This document shows, in pieces, positions 23,273 through 64,000 of a DNA stretch of 64,000 bases. Position 1 is the stretch's first letter. Every line of letters starts with the position of its first letter. Position numbers and translations under genes: made by a program. The notes beneath the pieces are model-generated. The model saw only the letters and a list, made by a program, of their open reading frames with translations. It ran no database searches and had not been told where the DNA came from. Source of the DNA: an uncultured Acidimicrobiia bacterium (GTDB taxonomy: Bacteria; Actinomycetota; Acidimicrobiia; Spongiisociales; UBA5794); NCBI GenBank assembly GCA_963708235.1, contig OY970200.1, positions 3,223,479 to 3,287,478 on the forward strand. The letters are read 5' to 3'.

Positions 23273-23278
23273 CCCCAA

Positions 23279-23315
23279 GAGCCCCAACGATTCCCACCGG
23301 AAACCGTTGGGGCTC
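23279..23315 (+). terminator. hairpin (11-bp stem GAGCCCCAACG / CGTTGGGGCTC, 15-nt loop) directly downstream of tRNA-Phe
   Basis: A perfect inverted repeat starts 7 nt after the tRNA. It could equally be part of an attachment site. Confidence 0.4.
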
Positions 23316-24015
23316 AACGATTTCCGATCCCCGCTGACATCTCACCCGGCTTCACCGGGTTTCGCGCTTTCTCACCCGATTTCACTGCTCTCCGCCGCGG
23401 AGCGCGCGCGGATCCGCTGCGCTACTCGGAATGCGTCGAGGCGTTCATGGCGCCTTAAACGCCGCGCGGATAGGGAGTGGTGATCCACCAGTCGGGGGGT
23501 TGTCTCGGGGATGATCCCGAGTGCACACAACCCCCGACCTGGTGGGGGCCACATCACGCGCGCTTGAAGCCCGGTGTCATGCAGGCGACGTAGGAGATGT
23601 TCGAGGCGGTGTTGCCGGAGCCGCCGGTGGATAACCAATCCGTTGGGTCGGCACCGCAGACGGATCCCGGATCGGGTGTGCTTTCAAGGGATCCTGCCCC
23701 GGCTCGTGACGTAGTCCTCGTGGGAGGACATCGAGTGGGTCCTCGGTTATGTCGTGTCCGACACGGTCCGGATGGCCGGTGTCATGTCGATCGCTCATCT
23801 TCAAGAGAAAGCTAGTGATCGGCCCGGGCGGTCGTCCACTCTGCTCATGCCTGGAGAAGTGTTGACGAAAAGTGTCGGCGAGAAGCTCGGGTCGTCCGAT
23901 CAGCGACTACTACTCCAAGGAAGCGCGCCTCAAGCTGACGAAATGTCGCGGAGGGTCTGTGCCCGGCGAACCTAGAATGCGGGTGTGGGTCGATAGCTCG
24001 TAGGAGTAGCACGCC

Positions 24016-24879
24016 ATGCCACCCGATGAAGTTGGGTCCGTCACCCCCTACCTGCACCGATGGGGAGTCGTCGTCGCCTTGGCAGGAGTCGTGATCGCAG
24101 CTGCTATCGGTATCGTACAGATCAACCGCAGCGCTGGGGCTGTCGGTCCCTCGTCGACCGCTCTCCAACCATCCGAGCAGACGACCTCGACGCTCGTCCC
24201 GACGACCTCGACGCTCGTCCCGACGACCTCAACAGCCGACGACACCACGGTCGCAGGTTCCGGTGCCTCGTCCGCCGAAGCAGCCCAGCGCGCCCTCGCC
24301 ATCGCGGAGGGCGCCGAGTCAGTATTGCCTGCCGACTACACCAGCTCGATCGAACAGGGCGAACCCGACTCCGTCGAGGGCGAAGACAACACTATGTTCG
24401 CTACCTGTCTCGACGGTGAGGAGTTCGCTATCGATGAGACGGCGTCCATCACCGCCGGGGTGGCGACGCTGACCGCAGACGGGCCGATGCAGGACTCCGG
24501 GCTGCCCGGACCGTCAGCCTCGATCGAGGTCCGGGTCTTCGACAATGCCAGTGCCGGCGACGAGGTCTTCGGCGTGCTCGAGCAGATCTTCGGCTCCGAC
24601 GCGGGACGCCAGTGTCTTGCCAACAGCGTTCAGGACTCGATGGGACCGATGATGGAGGACGCCGAGATCGACCTGTCGATCAATCGGCTCACCGTCGATG
24701 GCGCCGACATCGGTTCCCGCATCATGATGGATCTGGGCCTCGAAGGATTCGAGGCCCAGGTCGCCATCGACCTGCTTGCCTCCCTGGACGGCGACATCGG
24801 CACCTTCGGATCGTTCTTCAGCTTCGGCGACCCTTTCCCCGCCGACCTCCAGGCCGACATCATGACCGCGACCAGCTGA
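24016..24879 (+). CDS. hypothetical membrane-anchored acidic protein (one N-terminal TM, Thr/Ser-rich linker with direct repeat STLVPTT x2)
   Basis: ATG follows GTAGGAGTAGCAC. The TM is WGVVVALAGVVIAAAIGIV, and the extracytoplasmic part is very acidic. GC is lower than the surroundings. No recognisable family. Confidence 0.55.
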   Translation: MPPDEVGSVTPYLHRWGVVVALAGVVIAAAIGIVQINRSAGAVGPSSTALQPSEQTTSTLVPTTSTLVPTTSTADDTTVAGSGASSAEAAQRALAIAEGAESVLPADYTSSIEQGEPDSVEGEDNTMFATCLDGEEFAIDETASITAGVATLTADGPMQDSGLPGPSASIEVRVFDNASAGDEVFGVLEQIFGSDAGRQCLANSVQDSMGPMMEDAEIDLSINRLTVDGADIGSRIMMDLGLEGFEAQVAIDLLASLDGDIGTFGSFFSFGDPFPADLQADIMTATS

Positions 24880-25223
24880 GACCCTCCAAAGATCACCCCC
24901 ACAGGGCGCCCTCCTCGCCGGTGGGGTGCCTGTCTGGCAGGTGTGCTGGGACAGGTCCGGGCTGGTTAGGGAATCCTCAGCGCACCAAGGTCGTACCCAC
25001 AATGCGACAGCGACGTCTCAGTCGTGCTCAAAGCGCCATCGCACCTGCGTCAGCACCTACCGGCTCAGAGGAGGACTGGTGGTCCAAGCTCCGTGCCGTA
25101 GCTGTACATCAACCGCCACTGCGGCGAAGATCAACGTGCCATCATCGGAGGCCTGCGCTAGGCCCTGCGCATTACTTCTGAGACGGGGAGTCACGATGAC
25201 CACGGAATACCCAGGTTGAGCCG

Positions 25224-25952
25224 ATGGATCACGATCCGCGCTGGGCGGCCGTTGAGCAGAGTTCCTTGGCCGGCTTATATATCTATGAGGTGCGCTGGCT
25301 GTTGATCTCGTGTGTGGATGCGGCGGCGCGCTTGGCCGATCTCGCACCAGCCGACCTCGGTGACGTCATGAAGGTCGACGGGTCAATAGGCGTTAGTGCC
25401 ATTGAGGCGATTTCATCAGCGGCACGTCTGAATGCGCTCCTATTTGCTGCACCACGTCGAAAGGGCGAGTCCCTGAAGCGATTCGAGCTGCGCAAGCGCC
25501 GCGCTAGCTGGCTGAGGGACAGGGTCTTTGACGGAGTCGACGTGTCCGTGCTCAACGATCGAGGCGTCCGGAATAGCATCGAGCACTTCGATGACCGCCT
25601 AGATGAGGTCGCAGAGAAGGCTACCGACGGCGTGCACGAGTTCCCTCTCACGATCGTGAGCGACGTCGCACTCGGCCGACCGGGCTTGCTCGAATTCTTG
25701 GAGCGAGGAGAAGCGCCACCGAAGACGGTCCAGCATGTCCGTACATATGTGGCCTCCACCAACGAGTACCGCATCCTGCGCTGGAGCTTCGACGTCGGTG
25801 CCGTTGCCAGGTGCTGTAGGTCGATGCTGGACCACTTGGTCGATAGCGGGTATTTCGACGCTCGACTACCTGAAGAGCGAGCCGGATTGATGCTGTCCCA
25901 GCGTTCGCGGCCTCAGGCGAAGGGGATTCTGTCGGAGAACGAAGACGGCTGA
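25224..25952 (+). CDS. hypothetical protein with an Rx4H (HEPN-like) motif (VRNSIEHF)
   Basis: The 242-aa ORF is in the lowest-GC part of the window (about 60%). The only recognisable feature is the R-x4-H motif typical of HEPN RNase/abortive-infection domains. This is weak evidence. Confidence 0.45.
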   Translation: MDHDPRWAAVEQSSLAGLYIYEVRWLLISCVDAAARLADLAPADLGDVMKVDGSIGVSAIEAISSAARLNALLFAAPRRKGESLKRFELRKRRASWLRDRVFDGVDVSVLNDRGVRNSIEHFDDRLDEVAEKATDGVHEFPLTIVSDVALGRPGLLEFLERGEAPPKTVQHVRTYVASTNEYRILRWSFDVGAVARCCRSMLDHLVDSGYFDARLPEERAGLMLSQRSRPQAKGILSENEDG

Positions 25953-26297
25953 GCAGCATCGTGGAGCGTGAATGCAGATCTAGAGTGGTTCCGGCCCGCT
26001 GTACCTCGTGCTAGCCGGGCCAGCCGACAATCGCGGCAAGGTGTGGGCCGCTGGGAGGAGGGGACGAGGTTGGCTCCCTCCGAAGGCGGTGCGGCGCACC
26101 ACGTATTGCAGCCGCTCTTCTCGGGTGATTCGGCCGCGACCACGACCACCGAGAGGGGTGGCTGACTGTTGTCGGCGCTTCGCGGCAGCGGCCCGGGCGG
26201 TCGTGCTGGCGGTGTGTTTGGCGGTCACGTTGCCTGCCTGTCGCTGTCGTAGCGCTTTTGCCAGCCGATGGCGGGCGCGGGTAGCCCTGTGGTGTGA

Positions 26298-26513
26298 TCA
26301 GCGCGGGGCTGGCACGAGGTGAGCGAGTTGGGCTTCTCGTTCTTGGTCGAGGTATCGCTCGATGTCGTCGGGTCGGAACAGGATGCGTCGTCCGACCCGG
26401 ACACCGAGCGAGCCCGGTTGTTCACCTCGGTAGCGCTGTTGGTAGATAGCTCCGGGGGTGGCGCGGACGATCGTTGCGATCTCTTCGACCGTGAGGAGTT
26501 GAGGGATTGTCAT
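26298..26513 (-). CDS. excisionase/AlpA-family helix-turn-helix DNA-binding protein (Xis-like), 71 aa
   Basis: MTIPQLLTVEEIATIVRATPGAIYQQRYRGEQPGSLGVRVGRRILFRPDDIERYL fits the HTH_17/MerR-type excisionase fold. GGAGA lies 8 nt upstream. The longer Met-initiated ORF upstream is Pro/Ser/Thr junk. Confidence 0.65.
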   Translation of the reverse strand: MTIPQLLTVEEIATIVRATPGAIYQQRYRGEQPGSLGVRVGRRILFRPDDIERYLDQEREAQLAHLVPAPR

Positions 26514-26568
26514 CGGCTTCTCCAGTTGGACGGCGTGTGCACGGTCTGGGTGACCTCTCGGCAGTGGT

Positions 26569-28842
26569 TCATCGCTGAAGGGATCGGGCTGTCGATGGGT
26601 CGCCTGCTCGGCGTCCCTGGCTCGGTCGTCGGGTTTGGTCCATGTCGGTGAGGTGGTAGTTGATCCCGCGTTCGACGGCGGCGGGGTCCCAGTCGATGCG
26701 TTGGGAGATGAGCTCGGCTGCCTGGGCGCGTAGCTGTGGGTCGGTGAGGCCGACGACGATGACGGAGGCGTCGCGGAGGGCGTTCCAGTCGGCTTCGCGG
26801 TCGTTCGAGTCACGCTCGTTGAGGATGTGATCGATGACGTGGAGAGGAAGGGGTGTGGCCTCGGCGAGCGCCTTGCGCAACACGGGAAGCTGTCGGTTGG
26901 CGACGAGATCGGCGGGGTCGCTTCCCGCGGGGAGGGTGGCGACGCGGATGTTGAGGTCGGGGTCGACTTCCTCGGCGAGTTGGTGGACGCGGCGGGCGGC
27001 TTGGGTGCCGGCGTCGTCGCCGTCGAGGGTCAGTGTCACTCGGTGGGTGGTGCGGCGGAGGGTGGCGAGGTGGTGGGTGGTGATGGCGGTGCCGCCGGCA
27101 GCGACGGCGTTGGTGATGCCGGTTTGGTGGAGCGCGATGGCGTCGAGGTAGCCCTCGACGAGGATCGCCTCGCCGGTGTGGACGATGCCGGAGTGGGCGT
27201 GGTGGTGGCCGTAGAGGAGTTCGCTCTTGCGGTAGATGGCGGTGGCCGGCGTGTTGAGGTACTTGGGGCCGTCGCCTTCGATGAGTCTGCCGGCGAACCC
27301 TCTCGGGTGTCCTTGGCGGTCGTGGATGGGGAACACGAGCCGGCCGCGCATGGTGTCGTAGAGCCGTCCGGTTCGTGCCCGGGCGACGACACCGGCAGCG
27401 AGCAGGTCGCTGGGGGTGTACCCGTCGCGTTGGAGGGCATTCGTGATGGTCTGCCAGGAGGGCGGGGCGTAGCCGAGTTGGAATCGCCCGGTGATCTCGT
27501 CGGTGAAGTTCCGCCCTTCAAGATGTTGGCGGGCGGCCTCGCCCTTGGGTCCGCGTAGCCACGTTTGGTAGTGGGTGATGGCGCGGTCGAGGACCTGCTG
27601 GATACGAGCGGTGTCCTGTTGGCGGTCGGCGGTGCCTCGGGGTGGGATACCGCCGGGGATGACATCGGCGGGGTAGGCCATGGCGCCGCCACGGTGGGCG
27701 CGTTCGGCGTGGGTTCCGCAGGCGAGTTCGTAGTAGGCGTTGCCTTGCCTGCCGGGTTCGGCGGGGCCGTCGTAGACGGCGAGGTGGGTGGCGTCGTCGC
27801 CGCAGCTGGCGCAGCCGCCGTCGCGGGTCATGATGCCGGGGTGCCCGGGCGGGTAGATGCTGTACACCGCACCCCGCCGCTGCACCGTGCTCAGCTGGTC
27901 GGCGTCGATCTGTTCTCGCACCACGCCGTGGCCCACGGTCTCGCGTTCGGGGGCGGCGGGTGCGAGTTCGGGTGTGGGTGCTCGTTCGAGGGCGGGAAGA
28001 ATGCCCCGAGCGCAGGTGAGGACCCGCTGCGCGGTCTGGGCGATGAGGTTGGCGTTGCCGTCGGACCAGGTCGCAACGTAGGGGAGGCTGTAGCTGGCGG
28101 TGTCGATCCCGGCCGCGGCGGCAACGATGTAGGCGACGGATTCGGCTTCGACCTCGATGACGCCGCGGCATTCGGGGCGTTGCCCACCGTCCGGGTCGTG
28201 GAGGCGGATGTGGGCCAGTTCGTGGGCGGCGGTCTTGAACCGCTGTGCCCCCGACAGGTCGTCGCGGATGGCGACCTGGCGGCTGTCCCATGTGGTCATG
28301 CCGTTGGCGGTACCGAGACTCGCCGGGTGGACGAGGTCGAGGGTGAACCCTTCGGCGGCGATCAGGGCAGCGAGGGTGTCCCATTGTTGGGGGAGGTCCC
28401 CGACTGCGTGTTGAGGTCGGACTTCGGGGAGGGGTTCGCCGTCTGTCTGGGAGATGTCGAAGACGTGCACGACCCGGAACCCGACCACCCGCCGCTCACT
28501 CTCCTCCTTTGAGTCGGCTCTGGTAGCGGCGGGGGTGTGGTCGGGTTCGAGGTCGGGGGTCTTTCGAATGATCGGTGCCAGGATCGGGATGCCCTTTTCG
28601 CCCTTCCGGACTTGGCGGTCGAGTTCTTGCCATTTGCGGTACCCGGCGACTCGGCTGGGGGTGATGCCGCGGCGATGGGCTTCGATGGCGATGAGCTGGG
28701 CGTTGGCGAACGAGTAGTCGTGGAACTTCGACGCCACCTCGAGCGCGGCGAGCCAGTCCTCTGAGGTGACGAGGGCCCACAGGGATTCCTCGAGCTGGGC
28801 GTGGAGCTGAGCGGCGGCATCTGAACTCTGCATGAGCCGCAC
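26569..28842 (-). CDS. ArdC-like (N-terminal ssDNA-binding domain plus HEXXH metalloprotease) fused to a zinc-finger CHC2 and DnaG-type TOPRIM primase
   Basis: The N-terminus WLAALEVASKFHDYSFANAQLIAIEAHRRGITPSRVAGYRKWQELDRQVRKGEKGIPILAP matches the ArdC N-domain, and HELAHIRLH is an HEXXH motif. The C-terminal half has CASCG...H and GRLVFPIHDRQGHPRGFAGR...KYLNTP...ILVEGYLDAIAL (TOPRIM, EGYxD). Confidence 0.75.
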   Translation of the reverse strand: MRLMQSSDAAAQLHAQLEESLWALVTSEDWLAALEVASKFHDYSFANAQLIAIEAHRRGITPSRVAGYRKWQELDRQVRKGEKGIPILAPIIRKTPDLEPDHTPAATRADSKEESERRVVGFRVVHVFDISQTDGEPLPEVRPQHAVGDLPQQWDTLAALIAAEGFTLDLVHPASLGTANGMTTWDSRQVAIRDDLSGAQRFKTAAHELAHIRLHDPDGGQRPECRGVIEVEAESVAYIVAAAAGIDTASYSLPYVATWSDGNANLIAQTAQRVLTCARGILPALERAPTPELAPAAPERETVGHGVVREQIDADQLSTVQRRGAVYSIYPPGHPGIMTRDGGCASCGDDATHLAVYDGPAEPGRQGNAYYELACGTHAERAHRGGAMAYPADVIPGGIPPRGTADRQQDTARIQQVLDRAITHYQTWLRGPKGEAARQHLEGRNFTDEITGRFQLGYAPPSWQTITNALQRDGYTPSDLLAAGVVARARTGRLYDTMRGRLVFPIHDRQGHPRGFAGRLIEGDGPKYLNTPATAIYRKSELLYGHHHAHSGIVHTGEAILVEGYLDAIALHQTGITNAVAAGGTAITTHHLATLRRTTHRVTLTLDGDDAGTQAARRVHQLAEEVDPDLNIRVATLPAGSDPADLVANRQLPVLRKALAEATPLPLHVIDHILNERDSNDREADWNALRDASVIVVGLTDPQLRAQAAELISQRIDWDPAAVERGINYHLTDMDQTRRPSQGRRAGDPSTARSLQR

Positions 28843-28852: not shown

Positions 28853-28990
28853 CCCGTTCACCAACCATTGCCACACCTGTTCACCAACGACACACCAACC
28901 CCCATTGCCTCGACCGGGACCGGAAGCCGCCGTGGTGTGTCGTTGGTGTGTGTCTGGTGAGCGATCCGGGCAACGTTTGGTGAACGGCAT
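28853..28990. promoter_or_regulatory. divergent promoter region with four TGGTGAAC-type motifs (two in each orientation) and CGTTGGTGTGTG units; near-identical to the block at 54512-54590
   Basis: GTTCACCAACC occurs at 28855 and GTTCACCAACG at 28879. GTGGTGTGTCGTTGGTGTGTGTCTGGTGAGCG occurs at 28933-28964 and TTTGGTGAACG at 28976. About 30 nt of this is almost identical to CGTTGGTGTGTCGTTGGTGTGTGTTTGGTGAACGG upstream of the relaxase. Confidence 0.5.
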
Positions 28991-28995: not shown

Positions 28996-29769
28996 ATGGT
29001 GCCCGCCATGGACGAGACACCCACGACCGAGCGGGCGGTGGACACCGAGCTGGTGCGCCGCATCCAGGCGGACTGGCGACTTCTGGTCGAATCGCGACGG
29101 TTCCGCACCCACCTGAACCGATGGGGTGTCGAGGACCCTCGCCTGGCGTTTCCTCATGGCGACGACCTGGTTGCTGCGGCGCGTCGCCGCGACACCGACG
29201 ATTGGCGCCACCGCGACCAGGCTCTCTCTGCGCTGTTGGCGAGGGTCGGGTCGGATGCGTTGGCGAGGCGGGTGGCGCTGCAGGTAGTGCTCCCCGGTGT
29301 CGTCACCCTCATCGACACGGTGCGGGGTTGGGACATCGAGGAGCGCGCCTCGCGTGTGGTGGCCGAAGCCGTCGAAGTGCTGGAACGGTGTTCCGGCGTC
29401 GAGGCGGGGACTGCTCCGAACTTCCGGGTGTTCGCCAATACCCGCCGTCGGGTCCTGCGGGCAGCGATTCGGGACCGGAACGAACCCGTCACACCTACCG
29501 GTGTCGCGGTCGAGTCGGTCGCTCACGCTGAGCCCGGGGACGGTGACCCGTCGCTGGGGGCTGAGGCGGAGTTGCGGGAGCTCGTCGAGTGGATCAGCAC
29601 CGAAGGCGGGGTGCGCCGTGACGTCGCCGGTGAGGTCGTATTGACCCGCTCCGGCGGGGTCGATGTCGATCACCTGGCGGAGATTCTGGGCGTCTCGGCT
29701 CAGACGCTGCGGCGCCGGCGGCTGCGCACCGAGCAGCGCCTCGCCCGAACTCTGAGCCTCGAACGATGA
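28996..29769 (+). CDS. putative transcriptional regulator with a C-terminal sigma-70 region-4-like HTH
   Basis: The C-terminus VDVDHLAEILGVSAQTLRRRRLRTEQRLARTL resembles sigma-70 region 4 / LuxR-type HTH. The gene is divergent from the primase and adjacent to the TGGTGAAC repeats. The family is not firmly identified. Confidence 0.5.
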   Translation: MVPAMDETPTTERAVDTELVRRIQADWRLLVESRRFRTHLNRWGVEDPRLAFPHGDDLVAAARRRDTDDWRHRDQALSALLARVGSDALARRVALQVVLPGVVTLIDTVRGWDIEERASRVVAEAVEVLERCSGVEAGTAPNFRVFANTRRRVLRAAIRDRNEPVTPTGVAVESVAHAEPGDGDPSLGAEAELRELVEWISTEGGVRRDVAGEVVLTRSGGVDVDHLAEILGVSAQTLRRRRLRTEQRLARTLSLER

Positions 29770-54063: not shown

Positions 54064-54119
54064 CGCCGACCACCCCACAGTCGCCGCGGCTCCCGGCCGG
54101 TTCCCATCGCTGCTGGTGT

Positions 54120-54590: not shown

Positions 54591-54749
54591 GGCCACGGTG
54601 AACCCTGCTGCCGAGGCCGACAGGGGCCGGGGCGACCCAGGAGGGGCACGAGGATGAACGGATTTCGCGGATCGGACCTCTTCACCCGTAGGGCCGCGGG
54701 GCGTAGGGTGAGAGGTTCAGTGACGGACGCGGAATGCGAGGGGTACACC

Positions 54750-56652: not shown

Positions 56653-56654
56653 CG

Positions 56655-57320: not shown

Positions 57321-58072
57321 GCCTTGTCGTGTTGTGTTCGGCGCATGCTTCGCCCGGTGTCACCACGGCAGCGTTGGTGCTGGCGGCGGCGTGGCCACCG
57401 GATCGGGGCGGCGCCGTGGTGGTGGAGGCTGACCCTTCCGGTGGGGTGATCGCGGCCCGGTTCGGGCTGGGTGACACTCCCGGTCTGGCGTCATTGGCGG
57501 TCACAGCCCGCACCGGCGTCCCTCACGACGTGTTGGCTGGTCATGTCCAAGAGTTGCCCGGTGGCCTGCCGGTGGTGGCTGGGCCGGCGACTCCGGAACA
57601 GGCCGCGATGGTGCTCCCCGATGTCACCCCGGTGGTGGTGTCGATGTCGGCGACGTTCGATGTCGTCGTTGATGCGGGACGGGTCCTCCCCGGGTCACCG
57701 GCGATGGGTTTGTTGCGGGCGGCGGACGTGGTGTTGGTTGTGGTGCGCCCTTCACCGGATCAGCTGCGACCGGCCGCTACCCGACTCGAGGCCCTCCAAC
57801 GCAGCGGCGTTCGTGTGGCGGTGTGTCTGATCGGTGACGGACCGTACGGGGCGGAGGAAGTCGCCGCCGTGCTCGGTGTCGAGGTTCTCGGGGTGTTGGC
57901 GTGGGATCCCCGTTCCGCCGATGCTCTCACCGGCACCGACACCCCGAGGCGTGGATTGCGGCACATGCCCCTTGCCCGATCGGCCGCCACCCTCGCCGAG
58001 CACCTCACCGTTCGTCTCACCACCACCGGACCGGTTGCCGAAGACCGGCAGATGACGGGAGGGATGCGATGA
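57317..58072 (+). CDS. tadZ: TadZ/CpaE-like pilus assembly protein (degenerate ParA/MinD ATPase fold)
   Basis: ATGA overlap. The deviant P-loop region is CSAHASPGVTTAALVLAAAW with a ParA-like fold length. It sits immediately upstream of cpaF. Confidence 0.55.
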   Translation: MSLVVLCSAHASPGVTTAALVLAAAWPPDRGGAVVVEADPSGGVIAARFGLGDTPGLASLAVTARTGVPHDVLAGHVQELPGGLPVVAGPATPEQAAMVLPDVTPVVVSMSATFDVVVDAGRVLPGSPAMGLLRAADVVLVVVRPSPDQLRPAATRLEALQRSGVRVAVCLIGDGPYGAEEVAAVLGVEVLGVLAWDPRSADALTGTDTPRRGLRHMPLARSAATLAEHLTVRLTTTGPVAEDRQMTGGMR

Positions 58073-59367
58073 CCCCGGACCCGGTGTTGGTGGCACAGGT
58101 ACGCCAAGCCGTCACCGATCGTCTCACCGACCAGCTGCAAGGCTCGGGACCGGTGTCGGTTGATGATGAGCGGGAGCTGACCCGGTCGGTGATCGCTGCC
58201 GAGTTGCGGCGTATCGCTGAGGACGCCTACCGCAACGGCGCCGCACCGCTCGCTGCGGAGATGGAGTCAGCGGTCGCCGATGCGGTGTTCGACCGGTTGT
58301 GGGGTCTGGGCAGGTTGCAGCCGCTGATCGACGACCCGGGTCTGGCCAACATCCACATCAACGGCTGCGACAACGTGTGGTTGGTGTACCGCGACGGCAA
58401 CAAAATCCCCGGCCCGCCGGTCGCTGACACCGACCGGGAACTCATCGACGTGATCTCCGCTGCGGCCCGACGGGTAGGACGGTCCGAGAAGCGCTGGGAC
58501 CAGGTGTCGTGGGAACTGCATTTGCAGCTCGCAGGCGGTGAGCGTCTCCACGCCGTGATGGGTCTCACCGGACGCCCCGCGGTCACGATCCGCCGCCACG
58601 ACTTCTCCATCTCCCGCATCAAGCACCTCATCGACCTTGGCGTCATCGACGACGGCTTGGGCGAGTTCCTCGCCGCCGCGGTCAGAGCGAAACTGAACGT
58701 GATCGTCGCCGGCGGCACCAACACCGGCAAGACCACCTTGTTGCGGTGCCTGCTCAACGAGGTCCCAGCGGAGGAGCGGGTGATCACCGTGGAGGACAAC
58801 CTCGAGCTCGGTCTCGAGCGGTTCGTTGATCTGCATCCGGATCAGGTGTGTTGGGAGCGGCGCACCGCCAACATGGAAGGTCACGGTGCCGCCACCCTGG
58901 CTGATTGTGTGAAGGCCACGTTGCGCCAGAACCCTGATCGGGTGATTGTTGGTGAGATCCGTGGTGTCGAGGTCCTCGACATGCTGCGCGCTATGTCCCA
59001 GGGCAACGACGGGTCAATGTCGAGCATTCACGCCGATTCCTCCAAAGGCGCGCTGGTGCGCCTGGCGATGTACACCGCTGAGGCCGGGCTCGATGAGGAA
59101 ACGTCCAACAAGTGGATCGCCAACGCCGTTGATCTGATCGTCCACCTCGGCTGGGTCGGCACCACCCGCAGGGTCACCTCGGTGCGGGAAGTCCTCGAAG
59201 CGGACGCACGCCAGATCGCCACCAACGAGATCTACCGGCCCGCACCGGACGGCCGCGCCGTTCCCGCACCGGGTCCCACCATCCGCAACGGCACCCTCGA
59301 ACGCCTCGCCGACGCCGGGTTCGACCCTCACCTGCTGGCCAACCCCGACGGGTGGTGGGGACCATGA
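58069..59367 (+). CDS. cpaF: Tad/Flp pilus assembly ATPase CpaF/TadA (secretion ATPase superfamily)
   Basis: The start is set at MTPDPVLVAQVRQ (ATGA overlap). Walker A VIVAGGTNTGKTTLL and Walker B RVIVGEIRG are present, with Asp and His boxes. The 56-codon upstream extension is junk. Confidence 0.85.
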   Translation: MTPDPVLVAQVRQAVTDRLTDQLQGSGPVSVDDERELTRSVIAAELRRIAEDAYRNGAAPLAAEMESAVADAVFDRLWGLGRLQPLIDDPGLANIHINGCDNVWLVYRDGNKIPGPPVADTDRELIDVISAAARRVGRSEKRWDQVSWELHLQLAGGERLHAVMGLTGRPAVTIRRHDFSISRIKHLIDLGVIDDGLGEFLAAAVRAKLNVIVAGGTNTGKTTLLRCLLNEVPAEERVITVEDNLELGLERFVDLHPDQVCWERRTANMEGHGAATLADCVKATLRQNPDRVIVGEIRGVEVLDMLRAMSQGNDGSMSSIHADSSKGALVRLAMYTAEAGLDEETSNKWIANAVDLIVHLGWVGTTRRVTSVREVLEADARQIATNEIYRPAPDGRAVPAPGPTIRNGTLERLADAGFDPHLLANPDGWWGP

Positions 59368-60227
59368 CCCCCCTCACCGCCGCCGGAATCGGCGCCGCCG
59401 CCGGGGTGGGGATCTGGCTCGCCATCTGCTCACTGCGAGGTATCCGGGTCATCCCCCACGCCCGGGACCTCGTTCCCGACACCATCGCCGCCGAACGAGC
59501 CGCCGTGTGGCTCACCGGAGCACTCGTCGGCGGGTTGCTGGTCGGGTTGGTGACCGGGTGGCCCGTCGCCGGGTTGATGACCACAGTCGGGGTGCTGCTC
59601 GGGCCGGCGGTCCTGGGAGGGAACCGACGCCGCCGCGACGACATTGCGGTGGCCGAAGCGGTTGCGACATGGACCGACATGATCCGAGACACCATGGCCG
59701 GCGCCTCCGGTCTCGAAGAAGCCCTCGTCCAAACCACCCGCGTTGCCCCCACCGCGATCAAGGCACCGCTGCGGGCGTTCGCCACCCGGTTGCGGCACCA
59801 GTCCCTCGACGACGCCCTCGCCTCGTTGGCCCACGACCTCGACCACCCATCGGCTGATCTGTTGGTGGCGGCGCTGGCGTCCGCCGGGCGACTCGAAGCC
59901 CGCGACCTCGGTGGTCTACTGGGCAGGCTGTCGGAAGCGATCCGTGGCGATGTGCGGATGCGGGTCCGTATCGACATCGGCCGGGCCAGGATCCGCACCT
60001 CAGCCAAAATCGCTGCCGGAACCACCGCCGCCACCATCACCTTCCTGTACCTCTTCGCCGGACACCTCCTCGCCCCCTACGACACCACCGCCGGGCAACT
60101 CTGGCTTCTGGTCGTCGCCGGCGTGTTTGTAGGGTCGGGGGTGTTGCTGCGTCACTACAGCAACGTCGACATCCCCGACCGGTTCACCCTCCGCACCACC
60201 ACCGACACCCCGGAGGTTCGGCGATGA
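59364..60227 (+). CDS. tadB: TadB (type II secretion system F-family inner-membrane platform protein)
   Basis: ATGA overlap. Three TM segments in a GspF-like domain arrangement. Position after cpaF. Confidence 0.7.
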   Translation: MTPLTAAGIGAAAGVGIWLAICSLRGIRVIPHARDLVPDTIAAERAAVWLTGALVGGLLVGLVTGWPVAGLMTTVGVLLGPAVLGGNRRRRDDIAVAEAVATWTDMIRDTMAGASGLEEALVQTTRVAPTAIKAPLRAFATRLRHQSLDDALASLAHDLDHPSADLLVAALASAGRLEARDLGGLLGRLSEAIRGDVRMRVRIDIGRARIRTSAKIAAGTTAATITFLYLFAGHLLAPYDTTAGQLWLLVVAGVFVGSGVLLRHYSNVDIPDRFTLRTTTDTPEVRR

Positions 60228-61132
60228 CGCTGTGGGTGGCGATCCTCGCCGGCGCCGGATTCGGACTCGGCCTCATCCTCCTCGCAAGGGCGCTACGGCC
60301 GAGGCCGGTCCCGCTCGCCGACGTGTTCGCCGACCTGCAACGCCCCCGCACCCCAACCACCACCACGCCTGCTCCTGGTAGGGGGTGGCGGGGTGTGATC
60401 GGGTTGGTGGAGAAGGTCGGGCTTGTCGACACCGAAACGCTCACCCGTCGGCTGCGGATCCTCGACACCACCCCCGAACAGCACGTCACCACCAAACTCA
60501 CTGTCGCCATAGCCGGAATGGGGATCCCAGTCCTGTTCGCCGCCGTGCTACGCCTCGGCGGCATCACCGTGCCGGTGGGGTTGGTGACAGTGGGTGCTGT
60601 TGTCCTGGGGACGGTTGGGTTCGTGTGGCCCGATGTGGGGTTGGCGGATCGGGTGGAGCAGCGACGGCGGGGGTTCCGTCACGCCCTTTCGGCCTACCTC
60701 GACCTGGTCACCGTGATCCTCGCCGGTGGAGGCGGCCTCGAAACGGCCCTCCATACTGCAGCGGAGGCCGGCGACGGCTGGGCGTTTGCGGAGATCCGCC
60801 ACGCCCTACACCGTGCCCGGTTCACCGGCCAGACCCCATGGGACGTCTTCGACAGCCTCGGCCGGGAACTCGGCATCGACGAACTGTCCGAACTGGCGGC
60901 ATCGGCGCACCTCGCCGGTGACCAGGGCGCCCGCATCCGCACCACCCTCGCCGCCAAAGCAGACACGATGCGCGCCCACCAAACCGCCGCCATCGAAGCC
61001 GCCGGCGAAGCAGCCACCGAAAAGATGCTGCTCCCCGTCGTCGGTCTCGTCGTCGGGATGATCCTGTTCATCGGATACGGCGTCGTCGAAGCCATCTCCA
61101 CCCCCGACCCGACCTCGCTCATCCAACCCTGA
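60224..61132 (+). CDS. tadC: TadC (type II secretion system F-family platform protein)
   Basis: ATGA overlap. GspF-like domain with TM segments (LTVAIAGMGIPVLFAAVL..., LLPVVGLVVGMILFIGYGVV). Confidence 0.7.
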   Translation: MTLWVAILAGAGFGLGLILLARALRPRPVPLADVFADLQRPRTPTTTTPAPGRGWRGVIGLVEKVGLVDTETLTRRLRILDTTPEQHVTTKLTVAIAGMGIPVLFAAVLRLGGITVPVGLVTVGAVVLGTVGFVWPDVGLADRVEQRRRGFRHALSAYLDLVTVILAGGGGLETALHTAAEAGDGWAFAEIRHALHRARFTGQTPWDVFDSLGRELGIDELSELAASAHLAGDQGARIRTTLAAKADTMRAHQTAAIEAAGEAATEKMLLPVVGLVVGMILFIGYGVVEAISTPDPTSLIQP

Positions 61133-61161
61133 CCCGTGTTCCCGGAAGGAGGAACCAACCC

Positions 61162-61383
61162 ATGACCGTCTACATCACCTACCTACAAGCCCTCACCGCA
61201 GACACGCTGCGGCGGATGGGCCGCGACGTGTACGACGAAGAGACCGGCGCCATGTCCACCGAAGCTGCGGTCATCACCGGTGTCCTCGTCGCGGTTGCGG
61301 TCGCTGCGGGGATCATCCTGATCGCCAAGATGCGATCCAACGCCGAAGCCATCCCCGACGTCGTCACCCCACCCGGCAGCTGA
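61162..61383 (+). CDS. flp: Flp-family type IVb prepilin
   Basis: 73 aa. DEETGAMSTEAAVITGVLVAVAVAAGIILIA fits the Flp G/xxxxE(Y) processing motif followed by a hydrophobic helix. GGAAGGAGG RBS upstream. Confidence 0.7.
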   Translation: MTVYITYLQALTADTLRRMGRDVYDEETGAMSTEAAVITGVLVAVAVAAGIILIAKMRSNAEAIPDVVTPPGS

Positions 61384-61385
61384 CC

Positions 61386-61778
61386 ATGCATCAACGGACG
61401 GTGCGCAACGGCGAGGCGGGGGTGACCGCCACCGAACTGGCAGTGCTCATGCCGGTGGTGATCGCCCTCGTCCTCGTCCCGTTCCAGGTCGGGTTGTGGT
61501 GGCACGCCACCCAGGTCGCCCACGCCGCCGCCCAAGAAGCCGTCGACGCCATCCAAGCCCTCGACGGCACCGAAGCCGACGGCATTGCCGTGGCGACCTG
61601 GTTCTTGGACCAAGCCGGGCACCTCACCCACAAGCATGTCACCGTGACCCGCAGCGACGAAACCGTCACCGCGGAGGTCACCGGTGTCGCCCCCAGGTTG
61701 CTGTTCGATTGGTCCGTCACCGCCACCGCCATCGGCCCTGTCGAACGATTCACGCCAACCATGGAGGCCGATCCGTGA
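61386..61778 (+). CDS. tadE: TadE-like pseudopilin/minor pilin
   Basis: The N-terminus RNGEAGVTATELAVLMPVVIALVLVPFQVGLWW is the TadE family motif. Confidence 0.7.
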   Translation: MHQRTVRNGEAGVTATELAVLMPVVIALVLVPFQVGLWWHATQVAHAAAQEAVDAIQALDGTEADGIAVATWFLDQAGHLTHKHVTVTRSDETVTAEVTGVAPRLLFDWSVTATAIGPVERFTPTMEADP

Positions 61779-62206
61779 CCGCTGGGAGGCGGGCGTTGGG
61801 TGAGGGGGGTGCGGTGTCGACCGAGCTGGCGGTCCTCACCCCGGTCCTGATCGGGTTCATGCTGTTCGCCGTGTACGCCGGGCGGGTGACACAGATGGAA
61901 GCAGACGTCGCCAACGCCGCACACGAAGCCGCCCGCGCCGCCACCCTCCACGCCACCCCCACCGGTGCCATTGACGCTGCCGAGGTCACCGCCGCAGCGA
62001 ACCTCACCCACCGGGGAGTGTCCTGCGGTGAGCTCGTCGTCGCAGTAGATATCGCCGCGTTCAATCCGGGTGGGCAGGTGGCGGTCACGGTCACCTGCCA
62101 CACCTCGATGGGGGACCTGGCCATGCTGGCCGTGCCCGGCGCCCGCACCTTCACCGCCTCAGCGGTCGAGGTCCTCGACACCCACATCGCCGGGGGTGAC
62201 ACATGA
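61775..62206 (+). CDS. TadE/TadG-like pseudopilin (second)
   Basis: GTG start overlapping the upstream stop. GEGGAVSTELAVLTPVLIGFMLFAVYAGR has the same N-terminal motif. Confidence 0.65.
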   Translation: MTAGRRALGEGGAVSTELAVLTPVLIGFMLFAVYAGRVTQMEADVANAAHEAARAATLHATPTGAIDAAEVTAAANLTHRGVSCGELVVAVDIAAFNPGGQVAVTVTCHTSMGDLAMLAVPGARTFTASAVEVLDTHIAGGDT

Positions 62207-62607
62207 TGCGTCTGCGGTTGGGTGAGTCGGGTGCGGTGTCGACGTTCCTGGCGGTGATCGCGGTGGCGTTGGTGATGGCCGGTGGGCTCGCCGTTGACGG
62301 TGGCCACAAGGTCGCAGCGTTGCGTGAGGTCACCCACATTGCGGACAACGCCGCCCGCGCCGCCGCTCAAGCCATCGACACCGACACCCTCCGGACCGAC
62401 GCCACCGTCGCATTGGACCCGGATCGGGCGGTCGCCGCCGCCGAGCAGTACCTGGCGTCGGTCGGTCACACCGGCACGGTCACCATCGAAGCCGATCGGG
62501 CGACCGTCACGGTGACTCTCACCGTGCACCCCCGGCTGCTACCGACCGGGCCGATGACCGTGACCGCCACTGAGACCGCCACCGCCCTCAGCGAGGACCC
62601 CTCATGA
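62203..62607 (+). CDS. TadE/TadG-like pseudopilin (third)
   Basis: ATGA overlap. GESGAVSTFLAVIAVALVMAGGLAVDGG. Confidence 0.6.
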   Translation: MMRLRLGESGAVSTFLAVIAVALVMAGGLAVDGGHKVAALREVTHIADNAARAAAQAIDTDTLRTDATVALDPDRAVAAAEQYLASVGHTGTVTIEADRATVTVTLTVHPRLLPTGPMTVTATETATALSEDPS

Positions 62608-64000
62608 CCCCCAACCCCCGACGTATCACCGACCTCGTCAAAGGCCTCGTCACGTTCGTTGCGGTCACCGGGTTCATGATCGCGATCCCGGTCGGGCTGA
62701 TCCGCTACATCGGATGGCCGGTCCCCACCGAGCTACCGACCCTCGACCAGGTGGCCATGGGGCTGCGGTCCAGCCTCGACCCGCAACTCGTCATCAAGAC
62801 CCTCGCCGTCCTCGTGTGGCTGGCATGGGCACAACTCGCCATTGCCCTCATCGTCGAGACCGTCGCCGCCATCCGCGGCCACGCCTCCCAACACGTCCCG
62901 CTCCTACCCGGCCTTCAACAACTCGCTGCACGGACCGTCGCAACGATCGCGGTCGTCGCCGCCACCCTCGGCCCGGCCCGCGCCCCCGCAGCGTTCGCCG
63001 AAACCAACCCGCCCATCGTCTACGAACACACCACCCCCGCCACCACCACGGGGCAGGCAAACATTTCTGGTGCGGTGCCGGCTGAAGCGGCGGTCGTCGC
63101 CCATCACGTCGGGTACACGGTGCAGCGGTTCGACACGCTGTGGGACATCGCCGAACGCACCCTCGGTGACCCCACCCGCTGGCGCGACATCCGCCAACTC
63201 AACACCGGCCGCACCATGGCTGACGGCACCCAGTTCACCGAACACACCGACCACCTCACCGCCGGATGGGAACTCCACCTCCCACCAGACGCCACCCTCC
63301 CACCAACCGACGACGACGCCGGGCCCGGCGAAACCGGCAGAACGGTGCTCGTGGAGAAGGGCGACCACTTCTGGAGCATCGCCGGAGACACCCTCAGCGA
63401 GGCATGGGGCCGGGAACCCGCCACCGACGAGGTCGCCCCGTACTGGCAGTCGCTCGTTGCCGAGAACCGGGACCAGCTCGCCCCGCCCCACCACCCCGAC
63501 CTCATCTACCCGGGCCAGACCTTCACTCTCCCGCCGACACCGCCCGACCCCGCCAACGGGCATCCACCGTCGGTCAGCGCCCCCGGGGAAGTGGTGGTCG
63601 AGCGCGGCGACCATTTCTGGGGCATCGCCGAAGACACCCTCGCCGAGGCGTGGGACCGGGAACCCGCCGCCGACGAGGTCGCCCCGTACTGGCGGTCACT
63701 CGTCGAGGCCAACGGCCACCGGCTCCGGGCATCGCGCGACGCCAACCTCATCCACCCCGGCCAGGTGTTCGAACTCCCCGCCATCCCCGACGACCCGACG
63801 AGCGAACACCCCAAGAGGCCGACCGACACCTCCCAGGACAACCCGGCGGCGCCGCCCGACGAGCCACAGGGCGGGCCACGCAGCGACTCACCCGATCCCG
63901 CCGACGAGGCCACCACCGGCACGGAAGATGAGAGCCACGTCGTCGACTCGACGGCGCCGGCGCCCCGCGCCACCACACGTGTCGACACGCACCAGGACAA
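62604..64000 (+). CDS. membrane-anchored protein with three LysM-like repeats (partial; continues beyond window end)
   Basis: ATGA overlap with the previous gene and a clean high-GC3 frame to the window end. It is absent from the ORF track because there is no stop in the window. Two N-terminal TM helices are followed by three repeats (YTVQRFDTLWDIAERTLGDPTRWRDIRQLN, VLVEKGDHFWSIAGDTLSEAW...YPGQTF, VVVERGDHFWGIAEDTLAEAW...HPGQVF). Confidence 0.65.
   Translation, partial: MTPNPRRITDLVKGLVTFVAVTGFMIAIPVGLIRYIGWPVPTELPTLDQVAMGLRSSLDPQLVIKTLAVLVWLAWAQLAIALIVETVAAIRGHASQHVPLLPGLQQLAARTVATIAVVAATLGPARAPAAFAETNPPIVYEHTTPATTTGQANISGAVPAEAAVVAHHVGYTVQRFDTLWDIAERTLGDPTRWRDIRQLNTGRTMADGTQFTEHTDHLTAGWELHLPPDATLPPTDDDAGPGETGRTVLVEKGDHFWSIAGDTLSEAWGREPATDEVAPYWQSLVAENRDQLAPPHHPDLIYPGQTFTLPPTPPDPANGHPPSVSAPGEVVVERGDHFWGIAEDTLAEAWDREPAADEVAPYWRSLVEANGHRLRASRDANLIHPGQVFELPAIPDDPTSEHPKRPTDTSQDNPAAPPDEPQGGPRSDSPDPADEATTGTEDESHVVDSTAPAPRATTRVDTHQD

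Follow-up and report, generated by a model that had tools for sequence, protein, structure and literature searches.

A probable integrative and conjugative element carrying a Tad pilus operon downstream of a tRNA-Asp/tRNA-Phe pair

The window analysed here is a stretch of 64,000 nucleotides, the left part of which carries housekeeping genes (PEPCK, aldolase, phosphoglucomutase, PepX peptidases, ABC transporter and acyl-CoA synthetase) and one IS110. The housekeeping genes stop at position 23274 with a tRNA-Asp gene directly upstream of a tRNA-Phe gene, and conjugation genes lie downstream, bearing out the abrupt change in gene content at the tRNA-Phe 3′ end that an earlier sequence-only reading had described. 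The boundary is set by gene content and not by G+C, which showed no marked shift there. About 3 kb of unrelated genes separate tRNA-Phe from the first backbone gene.

23067-23144, + strand: tRNA-Asp (ARAGORN, Rfam)
23200-23274, + strand: tRNA-Phe (GAA), presumed attL side (ARAGORN, Rfam)
24016-24879, + strand: element-specific gene with a predicted membrane segment (GC-frame analysis)
25224-25952, + strand: second element-specific gene (GC-frame analysis)

The two element-specific genes had no match in Pfam, PADLOC or NCBIfam, and their homologues were absent from every related locus fetched (loci are designated by L numbers). They lie between an Xis-like gene and the tRNA, the position held by the integrase in related elements. 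Further to the right are a primase, a candidate regulator and the genes of a type IV secretion system (T4SS).

26298-26513, − strand: HTH_17 excisionase-family (Xis-like) gene, 71 aa (Pfam HTH_17, E = 3.8e-9, 37.1 bits against a cutoff of 27)
26569-28842, − strand: ArdC_N + M78-like + DnaG/Toprim primase fusion (Pfam)
28856-28990, unstranded: operator-like array 1, copies of TGGTGNGTNNNTGGTGAAC, separating the divergently oriented primase gene and regulator/T4SS operon
28996-29769, + strand: regulator candidate, 257 aa, C-terminal HTH (weak HTH Pfam matches, below cutoff)
30184-31074, + strand: TcpC/VirB8-like (Pfam TcpC, 29.3 bits, above cutoff)
31071-31334, + strand: hydrophobic protein, 87 aa, two transmembrane segments judged by eye; VirB2/PrgF-like candidate
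31331-31768, + strand: TcpE-like (Pfam TcpE, 25.9 bits, below cutoff)
31761-34337, + strand: VirB4 ATPase (Pfam AAA_10, 163 bits)
34334-35823, + strand: TrbL/VirB6-like channel protein, frameshifted (Pfam TrbL on the distal part; tblastn of homologues)
35820-37031, + strand: SLT+M23 cell-wall hydrolase (Pfam)
about 37047-37865, + strand: two small conserved genes, in the same order in L120 and L123
37862-39541, + strand: VirD4 coupling protein (Pfam)

The Xis-like gene, which lies directly downstream of the primase, weakly matched the Xis of L001 in tblastn. The domain composition of the primase fusion suggests that it acts as both an anti-restriction protein and a conjugative primase; it is 61% identical to its homologue in L121, where its position relative to the T4SS operon is also the same. 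The regulator candidate, the first gene of the T4SS-side operon, shares 61% identity with a 254-aa protein at the equivalent position in L121/L122. The T4SS genes at 30184-34337 are syntenic with L120, L121 and L123 (identity 63-83%), and homologues of the stretch from the hydrolase to VirD4 (35820-39541) are kept in order in L120 and L123.

VirB4, VirD4, the VirB6-like protein, the SLT+M23 hydrolase, the relaxase, the primase and the Xis-like HTH were each recovered by Pfam where the sequence-only reading had placed them. Its description of the T4SS as full holds for the presence and position of the listed genes and fails for the VirB6-like gene, which is frameshifted. This gene runs in frame 2 to 35104 and in frame 1 from about 35107, being split by one missing G in the G-run TGGGGGAG at about 35101-35106, as judged by tblastn of intact homologues of 496-501 aa (L121:12532-14022, L120:4287-5792) against the window. 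Unless this is a sequencing error, the present copy may be unable to transfer itself. The change affects one base of a homopolymer run and may have arisen in assembly. All other backbone genes scanned are full length.

Between the T4SS module and the relaxase module lies a block of defence genes, which is cargo. The same position in relatives holds other cargo, and DNA-level matches to plasmids were confined to the type I R-M genes. All assignments in this block are from Pfam and PADLOC.

39721-41034, − strand: Shedu SduA
41034-44045, − strand: type I R-M HsdR
44042-45220, − strand: type I R-M HsdS
45217-46125, − strand: Mrr-type type IV enzyme
46122-47822, − strand: type I R-M HsdM
47803-48390, − strand: second HsdS, half-size
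48387-49949, − strand: methyltransferase, beside the half-size HsdS
49946-50419, − strand: NYN-like ORF, weak

The remainder of the window is occupied by a relaxase gene and, divergent from it, a Tad/Flp (type IVc) pilus operon (54750-62607) followed by a LysM gene that closes the Tad module.

51157-54063, − strand: MOBF relaxase, TrwC domain + RecD-like helicase (Pfam)
54114-54597, unstranded: operator-like array 2, five copies of the 19-nt motif of array 1, between the relaxase and the Tad operon
54139-54163, − strand: candidate oriT core CACACACGCCCCTGCAACAAGTTGC, with the palindrome GCAAC-AA-GTTGC inside
54750-55796, + strand: lipoprotein, Tad operon (Pfam/NCBIfam scan, synteny)
55705-56652, + strand: unknown gene, Tad operon (synteny)
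56655-57320, + strand: SAF/CpaB-like (Pfam)
57317-58072, + strand: TadZ/CpaE-like (NCBIfam CpaE_hom_Actino, E = 8e-13, below cutoff)
58069-59367, + strand: TadA/CpaF ATPase (Pfam)
59352-60227, + strand: TadB (Pfam)
60224-61132, + strand: TadC (Pfam)
61162-61383, + strand: Flp-like pilin (Pfam/sequence)
61386-61778, + strand: TadE (Pfam)
61775-62206, + strand: TadE/F (Pfam)
62203-62607, + strand: TadG (Pfam)
62604-64000, + strand: LysM-repeat membrane protein, cut by the window end (Pfam LysM)

Read from the start at 54063, the relaxase has 968 aa, the same length as the database copy from the source genome, and its N-terminus aligns with those of relatives. It has more than 1100 homologues, mostly 55-58% identical; most are nameless, and the named ones come chiefly from Acidimicrobiia MAGs. 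The closest is 72% identical, and on its contig, as in L049, the relaxase is likewise divergent from Tad. In a MAFFT alignment of the window with eight related loci, strong non-coding conservation upstream of the relaxase gene was limited to the CACACACGCCCCTGCAACAAGTTGC block, about 75-100 nt from the relaxase start, which makes this block a candidate oriT. Array 2 surrounding it includes about 7 tandem 11-bp units at 54511-54592. The TGGTGNGTNNNTGGTGAAC motif has 7 matches in the window against 0.1 expected, all within 28856-28990 or 54114-54597. Relatives have the same array layout with motifs of their own (TGACAGGG in L040, TGAGA in L049), likewise limited to the Tad-side and primase-side control regions.

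Across 84 related loci, the great majority preserve the gene order of the entire Tad operon. Because the primase, relaxase and T4SS found here also accompany the Tad operon and the LysM protein (54750-64000) in relatives, which are mostly metagenomic contigs and MAGs of Acidimicrobiia, we judged both to be element backbone. The LysM protein is visible for 465 aa, compared with 1105-1122 aa in its homologues (full-length ORFs in L040, L048, L049 and L053), which also have a weak BTAD-like C-terminus (E = 0.005, below cutoff). Because the last visible gene is thus a backbone gene cut at 64000, with 465 of about 1110 aa seen, the element continues past the window and measures at least about 43 kb, in agreement with the earlier estimate of more than 40 kb. 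The Tad operon did not appear in the gene list of the sequence-only reading.

The same gene set was found on one 41.7-kb metagenomic contig (L040 + L120) in the order Tad-LysM-cargo-primase-relaxase-cargo-T4SS, in which the segment from Tad to primase is inverted relative to the window; the window order primase-regulator-T4SS recurs in L121/L122. Additional flanking sequence of 5 kb or more was available for 26 related Tad-LysM loci, and 18 of them carry an integrase or a homologue of the primase, relaxase or hydrolase. Tyrosine integrase and Xis genes lie beside the Tad module or the primase in relatives, and one related integrase abuts tRNA-Met. The sequence-only reading had regarded occurrence of these genes in a non-mobile context as evidence against it; the relatives adjoin integrases, tRNA genes and direct repeats rather than fixed core contexts. 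Eight proteins of the element were found in the protein collection; clustered at 90% identity, they were singletons apart from one cluster of two, and there was no near-identical copy of the element.

No recombinase, intact or as a remnant, was found in 23275-64000 among the substantial ORFs and gap ORFs scanned against Pfam, and every six-frame ORF of the region scored below 6 bits against an integrase profile built from the integrases of related elements. Both results agree with the earlier statement that the available 40 kb lacks an integrase. The search for a repeat of the tRNA-Phe 3′ end, proposed earlier for sequence past 64000, was run as far as that position: the 22-mer at 23251-23272 had no further copy in the window with up to 3 mismatches, and thus none in the 40.7 kb of 23275-64000. 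Because neither integrase nor repeat is present in these 40.7 kb, tRNA-Phe can be called only a presumed integration site, and the element only a putatively excisable one. L006, a related 13-kb element that encodes a relaxase, sits in the same tRNA-Asp/tRNA-Phe pair; the 3′ part of tRNA-Phe is repeated exactly over 56 bp at the two boundaries of this element, whose integrase lies at the tRNA-distal end. Use of this tRNA pair by L006 makes tRNA-Phe a plausible attachment site, and its layout would fit an integrase and attR beyond 64000.

We conclude, with a probability of roughly 0.8, that the sequence starting at 23275 and continuing past 64000 represents an integrative and conjugative element (ICE), or one that was disabled very recently. 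The element belongs to the actinobacterial T4SS/MOBF type and lies downstream of the tRNA-Asp/tRNA-Phe pair; its host is a high-GC actinobacterium, probably of the class Acidimicrobiia, judging from the origin of the closest named homologues. The visible backbone consists of four modules: the Xis-like gene with the ArdC-primase; the regulator with a Gram-positive-type T4SS (TcpC, small membrane protein, TcpE-like, VirB4, VirB6-like, SLT/M23 hydrolase, VirD4); the MobF relaxase with its conserved upstream block; and the Tad/Flp operon ending in LysM. The right end, and the integrase if it still exists, are outside the window. By analogy with what is established for such families, recombination between the tRNA-Phe 3′ end and a distal repeat, catalysed by a tyrosine integrase with the aid of the Xis-like protein, would release the element, and the relaxase would nick oriT upstream of its own gene. 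VirD4 would then pass the DNA strand to the VirB4-powered channel, with the SLT+M23 hydrolase opening the peptidoglycan and the Tad pilus probably aiding cell contact, and the ArdC-primase would shield the incoming strand and prime its complement in the recipient.

Integrase loss has to be taken seriously as an alternative because the HTH_17 gene of the window has no adjoining integrase, unlike in seven related loci (L001, L005, L006, L028, L045, L046 and L049), and we consider loss almost as likely as an integrase beyond 64000. The island may thus be a decaying, immobilised ICE remnant whose integrase originally separated the Xis-like gene from tRNA-Phe and has since been deleted or has given way to the genes at 24016-25952, and whose channel is now also broken by the VirB6-like frameshift; we lean against this possibility. 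In L045, the HTH_17/integrase pair is flanked on one side by the primase and on the other by a tRNA with its 3′ end towards the pair, and the window has the same order of primase, Xis and tRNA with unrelated genes at the integrase place. Relatives also include decayed copies, with a truncated regulator (L124), frameshifted integrases (L005, L006) and a frameshifted primase (L028). However, no trace of an integrase was detectable in 23275-26300, the other scanned backbone genes are full length, the oriT-like block is conserved, the frameshift may be the assembly error noted above, and, as L006 demonstrates, integrases of this family that are specific for tRNA-Phe can be at the distal end. On this reading, the island would now be fixed in place, carrying defence genes and a pilus operon.

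tRNA genes accumulate islands in tandem, and two or more may lie side by side here, either a T4SS element and a Tad 'colonisation island' or an older remnant (23275-26300) beside an ICE. Horizontal movement of Tad loci is known, no relative has a homologue of the first 3 kb, and distant loci with LysM followed by Tad (L099, L104-L108, L111, L113, L116-L118) have no conjugation genes within reach. We nevertheless find such a composite unlikely, as Tad-LysM is joined to the same primase, relaxase and T4SS on many independent contigs and in several different arrangements, the Tad-side and primase-side control regions have an element-specific motif array in common in the window and likewise in L040 and in L049, and no att-like repeat or recombinase lies between the modules. 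Neither an integrase nor an att repeat would be expected if a conjugative plasmid had inserted through homologous recombination or through recombination driven by its relaxase. Site-specific recombination at oriT is a reaction that relaxases of the TrwC type can catalyse, and the recombinase-free 40 kb, the encoded primase and the related Tad+T4SS clusters on Streptomycetaceae plasmids point the same way. We give this origin very little weight, since replication initiator and partition genes were not found in the element, relatives have tyrosine integrases, Xis genes, tRNA targets and the 56-bp att repeat, and the window retains an excisionase-family gene and abuts a tRNA 3′ end.

ICEBs1 and Tn916 are grouped with the Gram-positive T4SSs that share these channel components, and the TcpA-type coupling protein is FtsK-like. 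The present element resembles the Tcp system of Clostridium perfringens pCW3 and the Gram-positive T4SSs (ICEBs1, Tn916, pCF10, pIP501), at the level of Pfam similarity only, in its TcpC (VirB8-like), TcpE-like, AAA_10-type VirB4, polytopic VirB6-like and bifunctional cell-wall hydrolase proteins. It differs in having a VirD4-type rather than FtsK-like TcpA coupling protein and a MOBF relaxase. The 87-aa small membrane protein is at the position corresponding to PrgF, recently proposed to be VirB2-like (bioRxiv 10.64898/2025.12.18.695078).

T4SS/MOBF ICEs in actinobacterial tRNA genes are already known: 17 were predicted by Ghinet et al. 2011 (PMC3218068; reviewed in PMC3429521), most of them in tRNA-gene 3′ ends and with tyrosine integrases. 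These likewise combine a TrwC-like relaxase, VirD4 and VirB4 in a chromosomal island. In contrast, the integrase and attR of the present element are not seen, its host lineage is probably Acidimicrobiia, and its backbone adds the ArdC-primase and Tad operon, which were not markers in those surveys. Tad loci beside T4SS genes have also been reported: the Cutibacterium acnes linear plasmids p15.1.R1 and pIMPLE-HL096PA1 are actinobacterial mobile elements with a conserved tad/Flp locus next to conjugation genes (VirB4, TcpC-like; PMC5696575). Likened by gene content, they differ in being linear plasmids with an FtsK-like translocase, for which PMC5696575 mentions no relaxase, whereas the present element is chromosomal with VirD4 and MobF.

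A Tad + T4SS cluster is also present on the Embleya sp. NBC_00896 plasmid NZ_CP108778.1. Its Tad order (two unknown genes, SAF, TadZ-like, TadA, two T2SSF, small pilin, TadE, TadE/G, TadG, large BTAD protein) is the same, and the operon is directly beside PrgI, VirB4, VirD4, a relaxase-like gene and a hydrolase. It differs in being plasmid-borne, with 30-46% protein identity, a relaxase of another type annotated 'replication-relaxation', and a large terminal protein that has only a LysM-like stretch in common. On Kitasatospora and Streptomyces plasmids, TadA and VirB4 matches lie 12-15 kb apart.

Gene content changed completely 3′ of tRNA-Phe, and G+C was 63-70% across the whole window. The left flank encoded metabolism and transport functions (PEP carboxykinase, an aldolase, phosphoglucomutase, two X-Pro dipeptidyl peptidases and an ABC transporter), together with an epimerase, an acyl-CoA synthetase, an alpha/beta hydrolase and a beta-propeller lipoprotein. 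An Rfam scan of the window returned two tRNAs and nothing else. Genes were called from codon-position G+C and a codon-usage score and were annotated by Pfam, PADLOC and NCBIfam. The region to the right of tRNA-Phe is clearly a mobile island of at least 43 kb, with the following features.

23067-23144 (+): tRNA-Asp
23200-23274 (+): tRNA-Phe
Last 45-56 nt of tRNA-Phe: its 3′ end, GTCTGAAAAACCGGAGGTCGGCGGTTCGAGACCGCCCCTGACCACC plus a few bases
24016-24879 and 25224-25952 (+): two unknown genes
26298-26513 (-): HTH_17 excisionase-family (Xis-like) gene
26569-28842 (-): primase with ArdC_N, M78-like and DnaG-Toprim domains
28996-29769: 257-aa protein with a C-terminal HTH
30184-39541: TcpC-like protein, 87-aa hydrophobic protein, TcpE-like protein, VirB4, VirB6-like protein, SLT+M23 hydrolase, two small genes, VirD4
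39721-50419 (-): SduA, HsdR, HsdS, Mrr-type protein, HsdM, half-size HsdS, second N6 methyltransferase, weak NYN-like ORF
51157-54063 (-): TrwC+helicase (MobF) relaxase
54139-54163 (-): conserved block CACACACGCCCCTGCAACAAGTTGC, containing the palindrome GCAAC-AA-GTTGC
54750-62607 (+): full Tad/Flp operon, followed by a LysM-repeat protein that runs off the window end

The sequence-only reading had described a tRNA-Phe-associated conjugative element, and every gene that it listed was recovered by the Pfam, PADLOC and NCBIfam scans. Its interpretation was largely right but incomplete. The Tad operon and the defence cargo had gone unmentioned. The 257-aa HTH protein was considered as the Xis-like HTH and set aside: it is conserved and regulator-like with weak HTH matches, and the real excisionase-family gene is the one at 26298-26513. 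The ORF at 26319-26651 (+), which overlaps the HTH_17 gene, was judged spurious. When the flanking core gene (21811-22977) was used to look for an empty tRNA-Phe site, no relative was retrieved from the genome-contig collection. Eight proteins of the element were present in the protein collection, where clustering at 90% identity left them as singletons or, in one case, in a cluster of two. The housekeeping region included an IS110-family (DEDD) transposase gene (16138-17187, -), 6 kb upstream of the tRNA pair, and a homologous IS110 transposase (30% identity to that of the window) was found near the solitary relaxase of the related locus L005.

A relaxase, a type IV coupling protein and a VirB4 ATPase, a combination expected of a T4SS-type ICE, were encoded within 22 kb (Pfam scores of 254 bits for TrwC, 135 for T4SS-DNA_transf and 163 for AAA_10). 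The relaxase had the MOBF architecture, with an N-terminal TrwC domain (PF08751) followed by AAA_30, AAA_19, SH3_13 and UvrD_C_2, and its tblastn matches on plasmids were annotated as 'MobF family relaxase'. AICEs of the FtsK/TraB type use a TraB/FtsK-like dsDNA translocase and a Rep protein; the element instead carries VirB4, VirD4 and a relaxase, and none of the ORFs scanned with Pfam had an FtsK_SpoIIIE or Rep domain. It fits the kind of T4SS-type ICE with TrwC-like relaxase, VirD4 and VirB4 that was predicted in Actinobacteria in 2011, mostly at tRNA 3′ ends (PMC3218068, PMC3429521).

The remaining transfer genes formed a Gram-positive (Tcp/FATA-like) T4SS set in one operon, comprising TcpC/VirB8-like, TcpE-like, AAA_10 VirB4 and VirB6-like proteins and a peptidoglycan hydrolase, where the TcpE and TrbL Pfam scores were just under the curated cutoffs. 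The order of this operon was kept in the related loci L120, L121 and L123. Of the full T4SS described earlier, the TcpC, TcpE-like and hydrolase components were present, but the VirB6-like gene carried a 1-nt frameshift. Intact VirB6-like homologues are 496 and 501 aa long; their alignment to the window ran in frame 2 until ...DPYDTINWG (35104) and in frame 1 from about 35107, and the DNA at the frame change reads AACTGGGGGAGCTCCTC. Adding one G restores AAC TGG GGG GAG CTC CTC, as in the VirB6-like homologue, indicating a 1-nt loss in a homopolymer G-run (35101-35106). The loss may have arisen during assembly or may be a real mutation that inactivates the gene. The best-conserved product of the operon (79-83% identity to L120 and L121) was the 87-aa hydrophobic protein encoded at 31071-31334 (+) between the TcpC-like and TcpE-like genes, in which two transmembrane segments were recognized by eye. 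Gram-positive T4SSs have been argued to have VirB2-like pilins (preprint 10.64898/2025.12.18.695078), and the 87-aa protein may be a VirB2/PrgF-like pilin candidate.

The operon at the right end of the window encoded a complete Tad/Flp (type IVc) set of a TadA/CpaF ATPase (T2SSE, 122 bits), a TadB/TadC platform and TadE/F/G pseudopilins. T2SSF matched 60224-61132, and Pfam found two TadE domains and one Tad domain; the 291-aa neighbour of the T2SSF gene was assigned by position only. A 73-aa Flp-type prepilin candidate (...EETG/AMSTEAAVITGVLVAVAVAAGIIL...) showed the G/xxxxE processing motif by eye and had no profile match. No A24-type prepilin peptidase (TadV/CpaA) was found among the window ORFs scanned, and this enzyme may be encoded elsewhere in the genome.

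Linkage across relatives indicates that the Tad operon is part of the backbone of the element rather than a neighbour and that the element continues past the window. The relaxase had more than 1100 homologues (E<=1e-30), mostly 55-58% identical, and VirB4 had 90, mostly 60-70% identical; most of these matches were unnamed, and the named ones, like the best matches of the LysM protein, were chiefly from Acidimicrobiia MAGs. A metagenome scan with the LysM alignment yielded 303 relatives and 80 loci, and all window proteins were mapped onto these loci. The Tad operon and the LysM gene occurred together in nearly all loci, in the order of the window in the great majority, and a distant group had a LysM-like gene preceding the Tad operon. 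Among the 26 loci whose extra flank was 5 kb or longer, 18 carried a homologous conjugation gene or an integrase. In the closest clade (L040, L042, L053, L055 and L065), the ArdC-primase gene (-) followed the LysM gene by about 0.2-7 kb, with the relaxase gene (+) directly after it. The relaxase gene was divergent from the Tad operon, as in the window, in L049 and in the contig that carries the closest relaxase (72% identity), and a more distant clade had a homologous SLT/M23 hydrolase a few kb past LysM. L040 and L120 proved to be parts of one 41.7-kb contig (Ga0114938_1000271) with the order Tad-LysM-cargo-primase(-)-relaxase(+)-R-M cargo-T4SS(-), which is the gene set of the window with the segment from Tad to primase inverted. 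In L121 and L122, the order primase(-)-regulator-TcpC-...-VirB4-VirB6 matched that of the window at 61-81% identity. Because the LysM protein is 1105-1122 aa long in the closest clade, the copy cut at 64000 must extend about 2 kb further, in agreement with the earlier estimate that the element exceeds 40 kb. L121/L122 also carried, at 1-2037 (-), a second, distant T2SSE/T2SSF set (30% identity to the window TadA), 2.7 kb from the primase of this closest T4SS relative and belonging either to that element or to the chromosome. In L059, a 3.3-kb insertion (5852-9214) with a tyrosine-recombinase-like ORF (7919-9016, -) split the Tad operon between TadE and the next pseudopilin gene.

The 19-nt motif TGGTGNGTNNNTGGTGAAC occurred in seven copies (up to two mismatches) versus 0.1 expected in the window, all of them in the intergenic stretches of two divergent gene pairs: 28856-28990 (primase versus regulator/T4SS operon) and 54114-54597 (relaxase versus Tad operon). 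The latter included about seven tandem 11-bp units at 54511-54592. Relatives showed the same layout with motifs of their own: L040 had nine copies of TGACAGGG in total, each either upstream of Tad or between primase and relaxase, and L049 had TGAGA arrays with 11-nt spacing at relaxase/Tad and primase/Xis. The presence of arrays in both control regions suggests co-regulation of the Tad operon with the genes for DNA processing and transfer, and the arrays might have mediated the inversion between the window and L040. In addition, the window and eight relatives shared one conserved non-coding block, CACACGC-N-C-N-TGCAACAAGTTGC, ahead of the relaxase gene. Its conservation as CACACACGCCCCTGCAACAAGTTGC in the window, although the relaxases are only 55-60% identical, makes it a candidate oriT nick region.

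The sequence-only reading had noted the lack of an integrase in the roughly 40 kb available, and this was upheld by every search. Pfam found no recombinase domain in any ORF scanned, including all substantial ORFs and gap ORFs. The only gaps long enough for an integrase were 23275-24016 and 49949-51157, and the ORFs there had no recombinase match. Integrases of relatives found nothing in the window by tblastn. Five integrases of related elements were combined into a profile; it detected all integrases of the fetched loci, but none of the six-frame ORFs of 23200-64000 reached 6 bits. The 22-mer quoted earlier and longer versions of the tRNA-Phe 3′ end occurred once in the window, so that no second copy was present up to 64000, and no word of at least 14 nt was common to 23150-23700 and the rest of the window. 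Because the word, Pfam, gap-ORF and profile searches were all empty, the absence is real for the visible part. The lack of an integrase is unremarkable in itself, the gene being either just outside the window or lost.

We give a probability of about one half to an integrase beyond the window. The earlier proposal that integrase and attR lie past 64000 is credible because of L006, a locus near a tRNA-Asp/tRNA-Phe pair whose relaxase is 58% identical to that of the window. There, a 13-kb element is flanked by an exact 56-bp direct repeat (7974-8029 and 21006-21061), in which the last 49 nt of tRNA-Phe are followed by 7 further nt. The element has a MobF relaxase, an Xis-like gene and, directly adjoining the repeat far from the tRNA, a frameshifted tyrosine integrase. 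The two copies form a textbook attL/attR pair at a site of the same kind, and the L006 element resembles an integrative mobilisable element that has decayed at this tRNA pair. Loss of the integrase comes somewhat short of an even chance. In seven loci (L001, L005, L006, L028, L045, L046 and L049) the HTH_17 gene directly adjoins the integrase. That of the window is placed between primase and tRNA, and the position expected for an integrase is taken by two unrelated genes. Visible decay in relatives (L005, L006, L028 and L124) also fits a loss. Other explanations take the small remainder.

Further integration sites were seen among the relatives. Tyrosine integrases with an adjoining HTH_17 gene occurred on the left side of the Tad operon (L001/L046, L002 and L003) or just past the primase (L045, L049 and L028). 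The integrase of L045 abuts a tRNA-Met whose 3′ end faces it, and L050 has an Xis-like gene at its contig end; a 91-nt 'tRNA-Phe' in L092 was left out as an apparent false call. L005 and L006, with solitary relaxases, and L123-L125 are decayed or mobilisable relatives rather than full elements. When genomes were scanned with the ArdC-primase, most matches were chromosomal DnaG genes, and the sole true primase relative among genome contigs was L028, a different, decayed island. In this nanopore-style MAG, the primase (10001-11923) was split over several frames and adjoined an Xis gene and a 462-aa integrase-like ORF with N-terminal and central integrase domains only, about 4 kb from tRNA-Met. 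L124, from a 2.73-Mb contig of an Acidimicrobiia MAG, has the appearance of a truncated relative: its T4SS operon directly borders the core genes TatA/TatC, the primase is gone and just a C-terminal remnant of the 257-aa regulator is left (7790-7975). It has a large serine recombinase 4 kb beyond VirD4.

From the observed genes, their order and their conservation, and by analogy with established MOBF, VirD4/VirB4, Tcp-type T4SS, ArdC/primase and integrase-plus-excisionase systems, a working scheme can be proposed. The element would be excised from tRNA-Phe, the relaxase would nick oriT, and VirD4 would pass the single strand to a VirB4-energised channel composed of TcpC, TcpE, the VirB6-like protein and small membrane proteins. 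The SLT/M23 enzyme would open the wall, and the ArdC-primase would shield the incoming strand and prime its complement. The Tad pilus and its LysM wall-binding partner would plausibly bring cells together. A tentative and rather doubtful extension is that Tad/Flp with LysM/BTAD, rather than being cargo, functions within the conjugation apparatus of a widespread family of actinobacterial conjugative elements, as the pilus by which a monoderm T4SS makes contact or mates, and that a single element-encoded DNA-binding protein acting at the shared 11-bp-periodic arrays switches it on together with the relaxase, primase and T4SS.

The linkage of a Tad operon to a Gram-positive-type T4SS recurs in the window, Streptomycetaceae plasmids and C. 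acnes plasmids. An Embleya plasmid has the Tad operon in the order of the element, with a large BTAD protein last and a T4SS cluster directly adjoining, and on plasmids of Kitasatospora and Streptomyces the TadA and VirB4 matches are separated by 12-15 kb. Linear plasmids of C. acnes carry a tad locus beside VirB4/TcpC genes, for which a conjugation role was only suggested (PMC5696575). The Tad pilus may be part of the conjugation machinery, and the recurring linkage makes it testable whether pili help monoderm bacteria to form mating pairs. Our search of the literature on Tad with ICEs in Actinobacteria and Acidimicrobiia found no description of this Acidimicrobiia-associated family. As far as that search shows, the window provides a mapped example of an undescribed conjugative-element family. 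The family is large, with more than 1100 relaxase homologues and about 300 Tad-LysM loci in metagenomes. Four modules have been mapped, together with candidates for the oriT and for operator arrays. The points worth keeping are the frameshifted VirB6-like gene, the Tad-LysM backbone with its shared arrays, the oriT candidate and the L006 precedent.

The island also brings three or four defence systems, along with the pilus operon, into a poorly studied actinobacterial lineage. PADLOC identified Shedu SduA (442 bits) and mREase_IV (236 bits), and HsdR, HsdS and HsdM domains occurred together (Pfam), as in a type I R-M system. Beside this complete type I R-M/Mrr cluster, 47803-49949 (-) encoded a second N6 methyltransferase and a half-size HsdS with no HsdR of their own, with weaker PADLOC matches to 'mads' components. 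In a DNA-level search against plasmids, the type I R-M genes matched and nothing else did. The defence genes are cargo, and the cargo varies among relatives, which have Vsr/Dcm, Eco57I-type and other genes.
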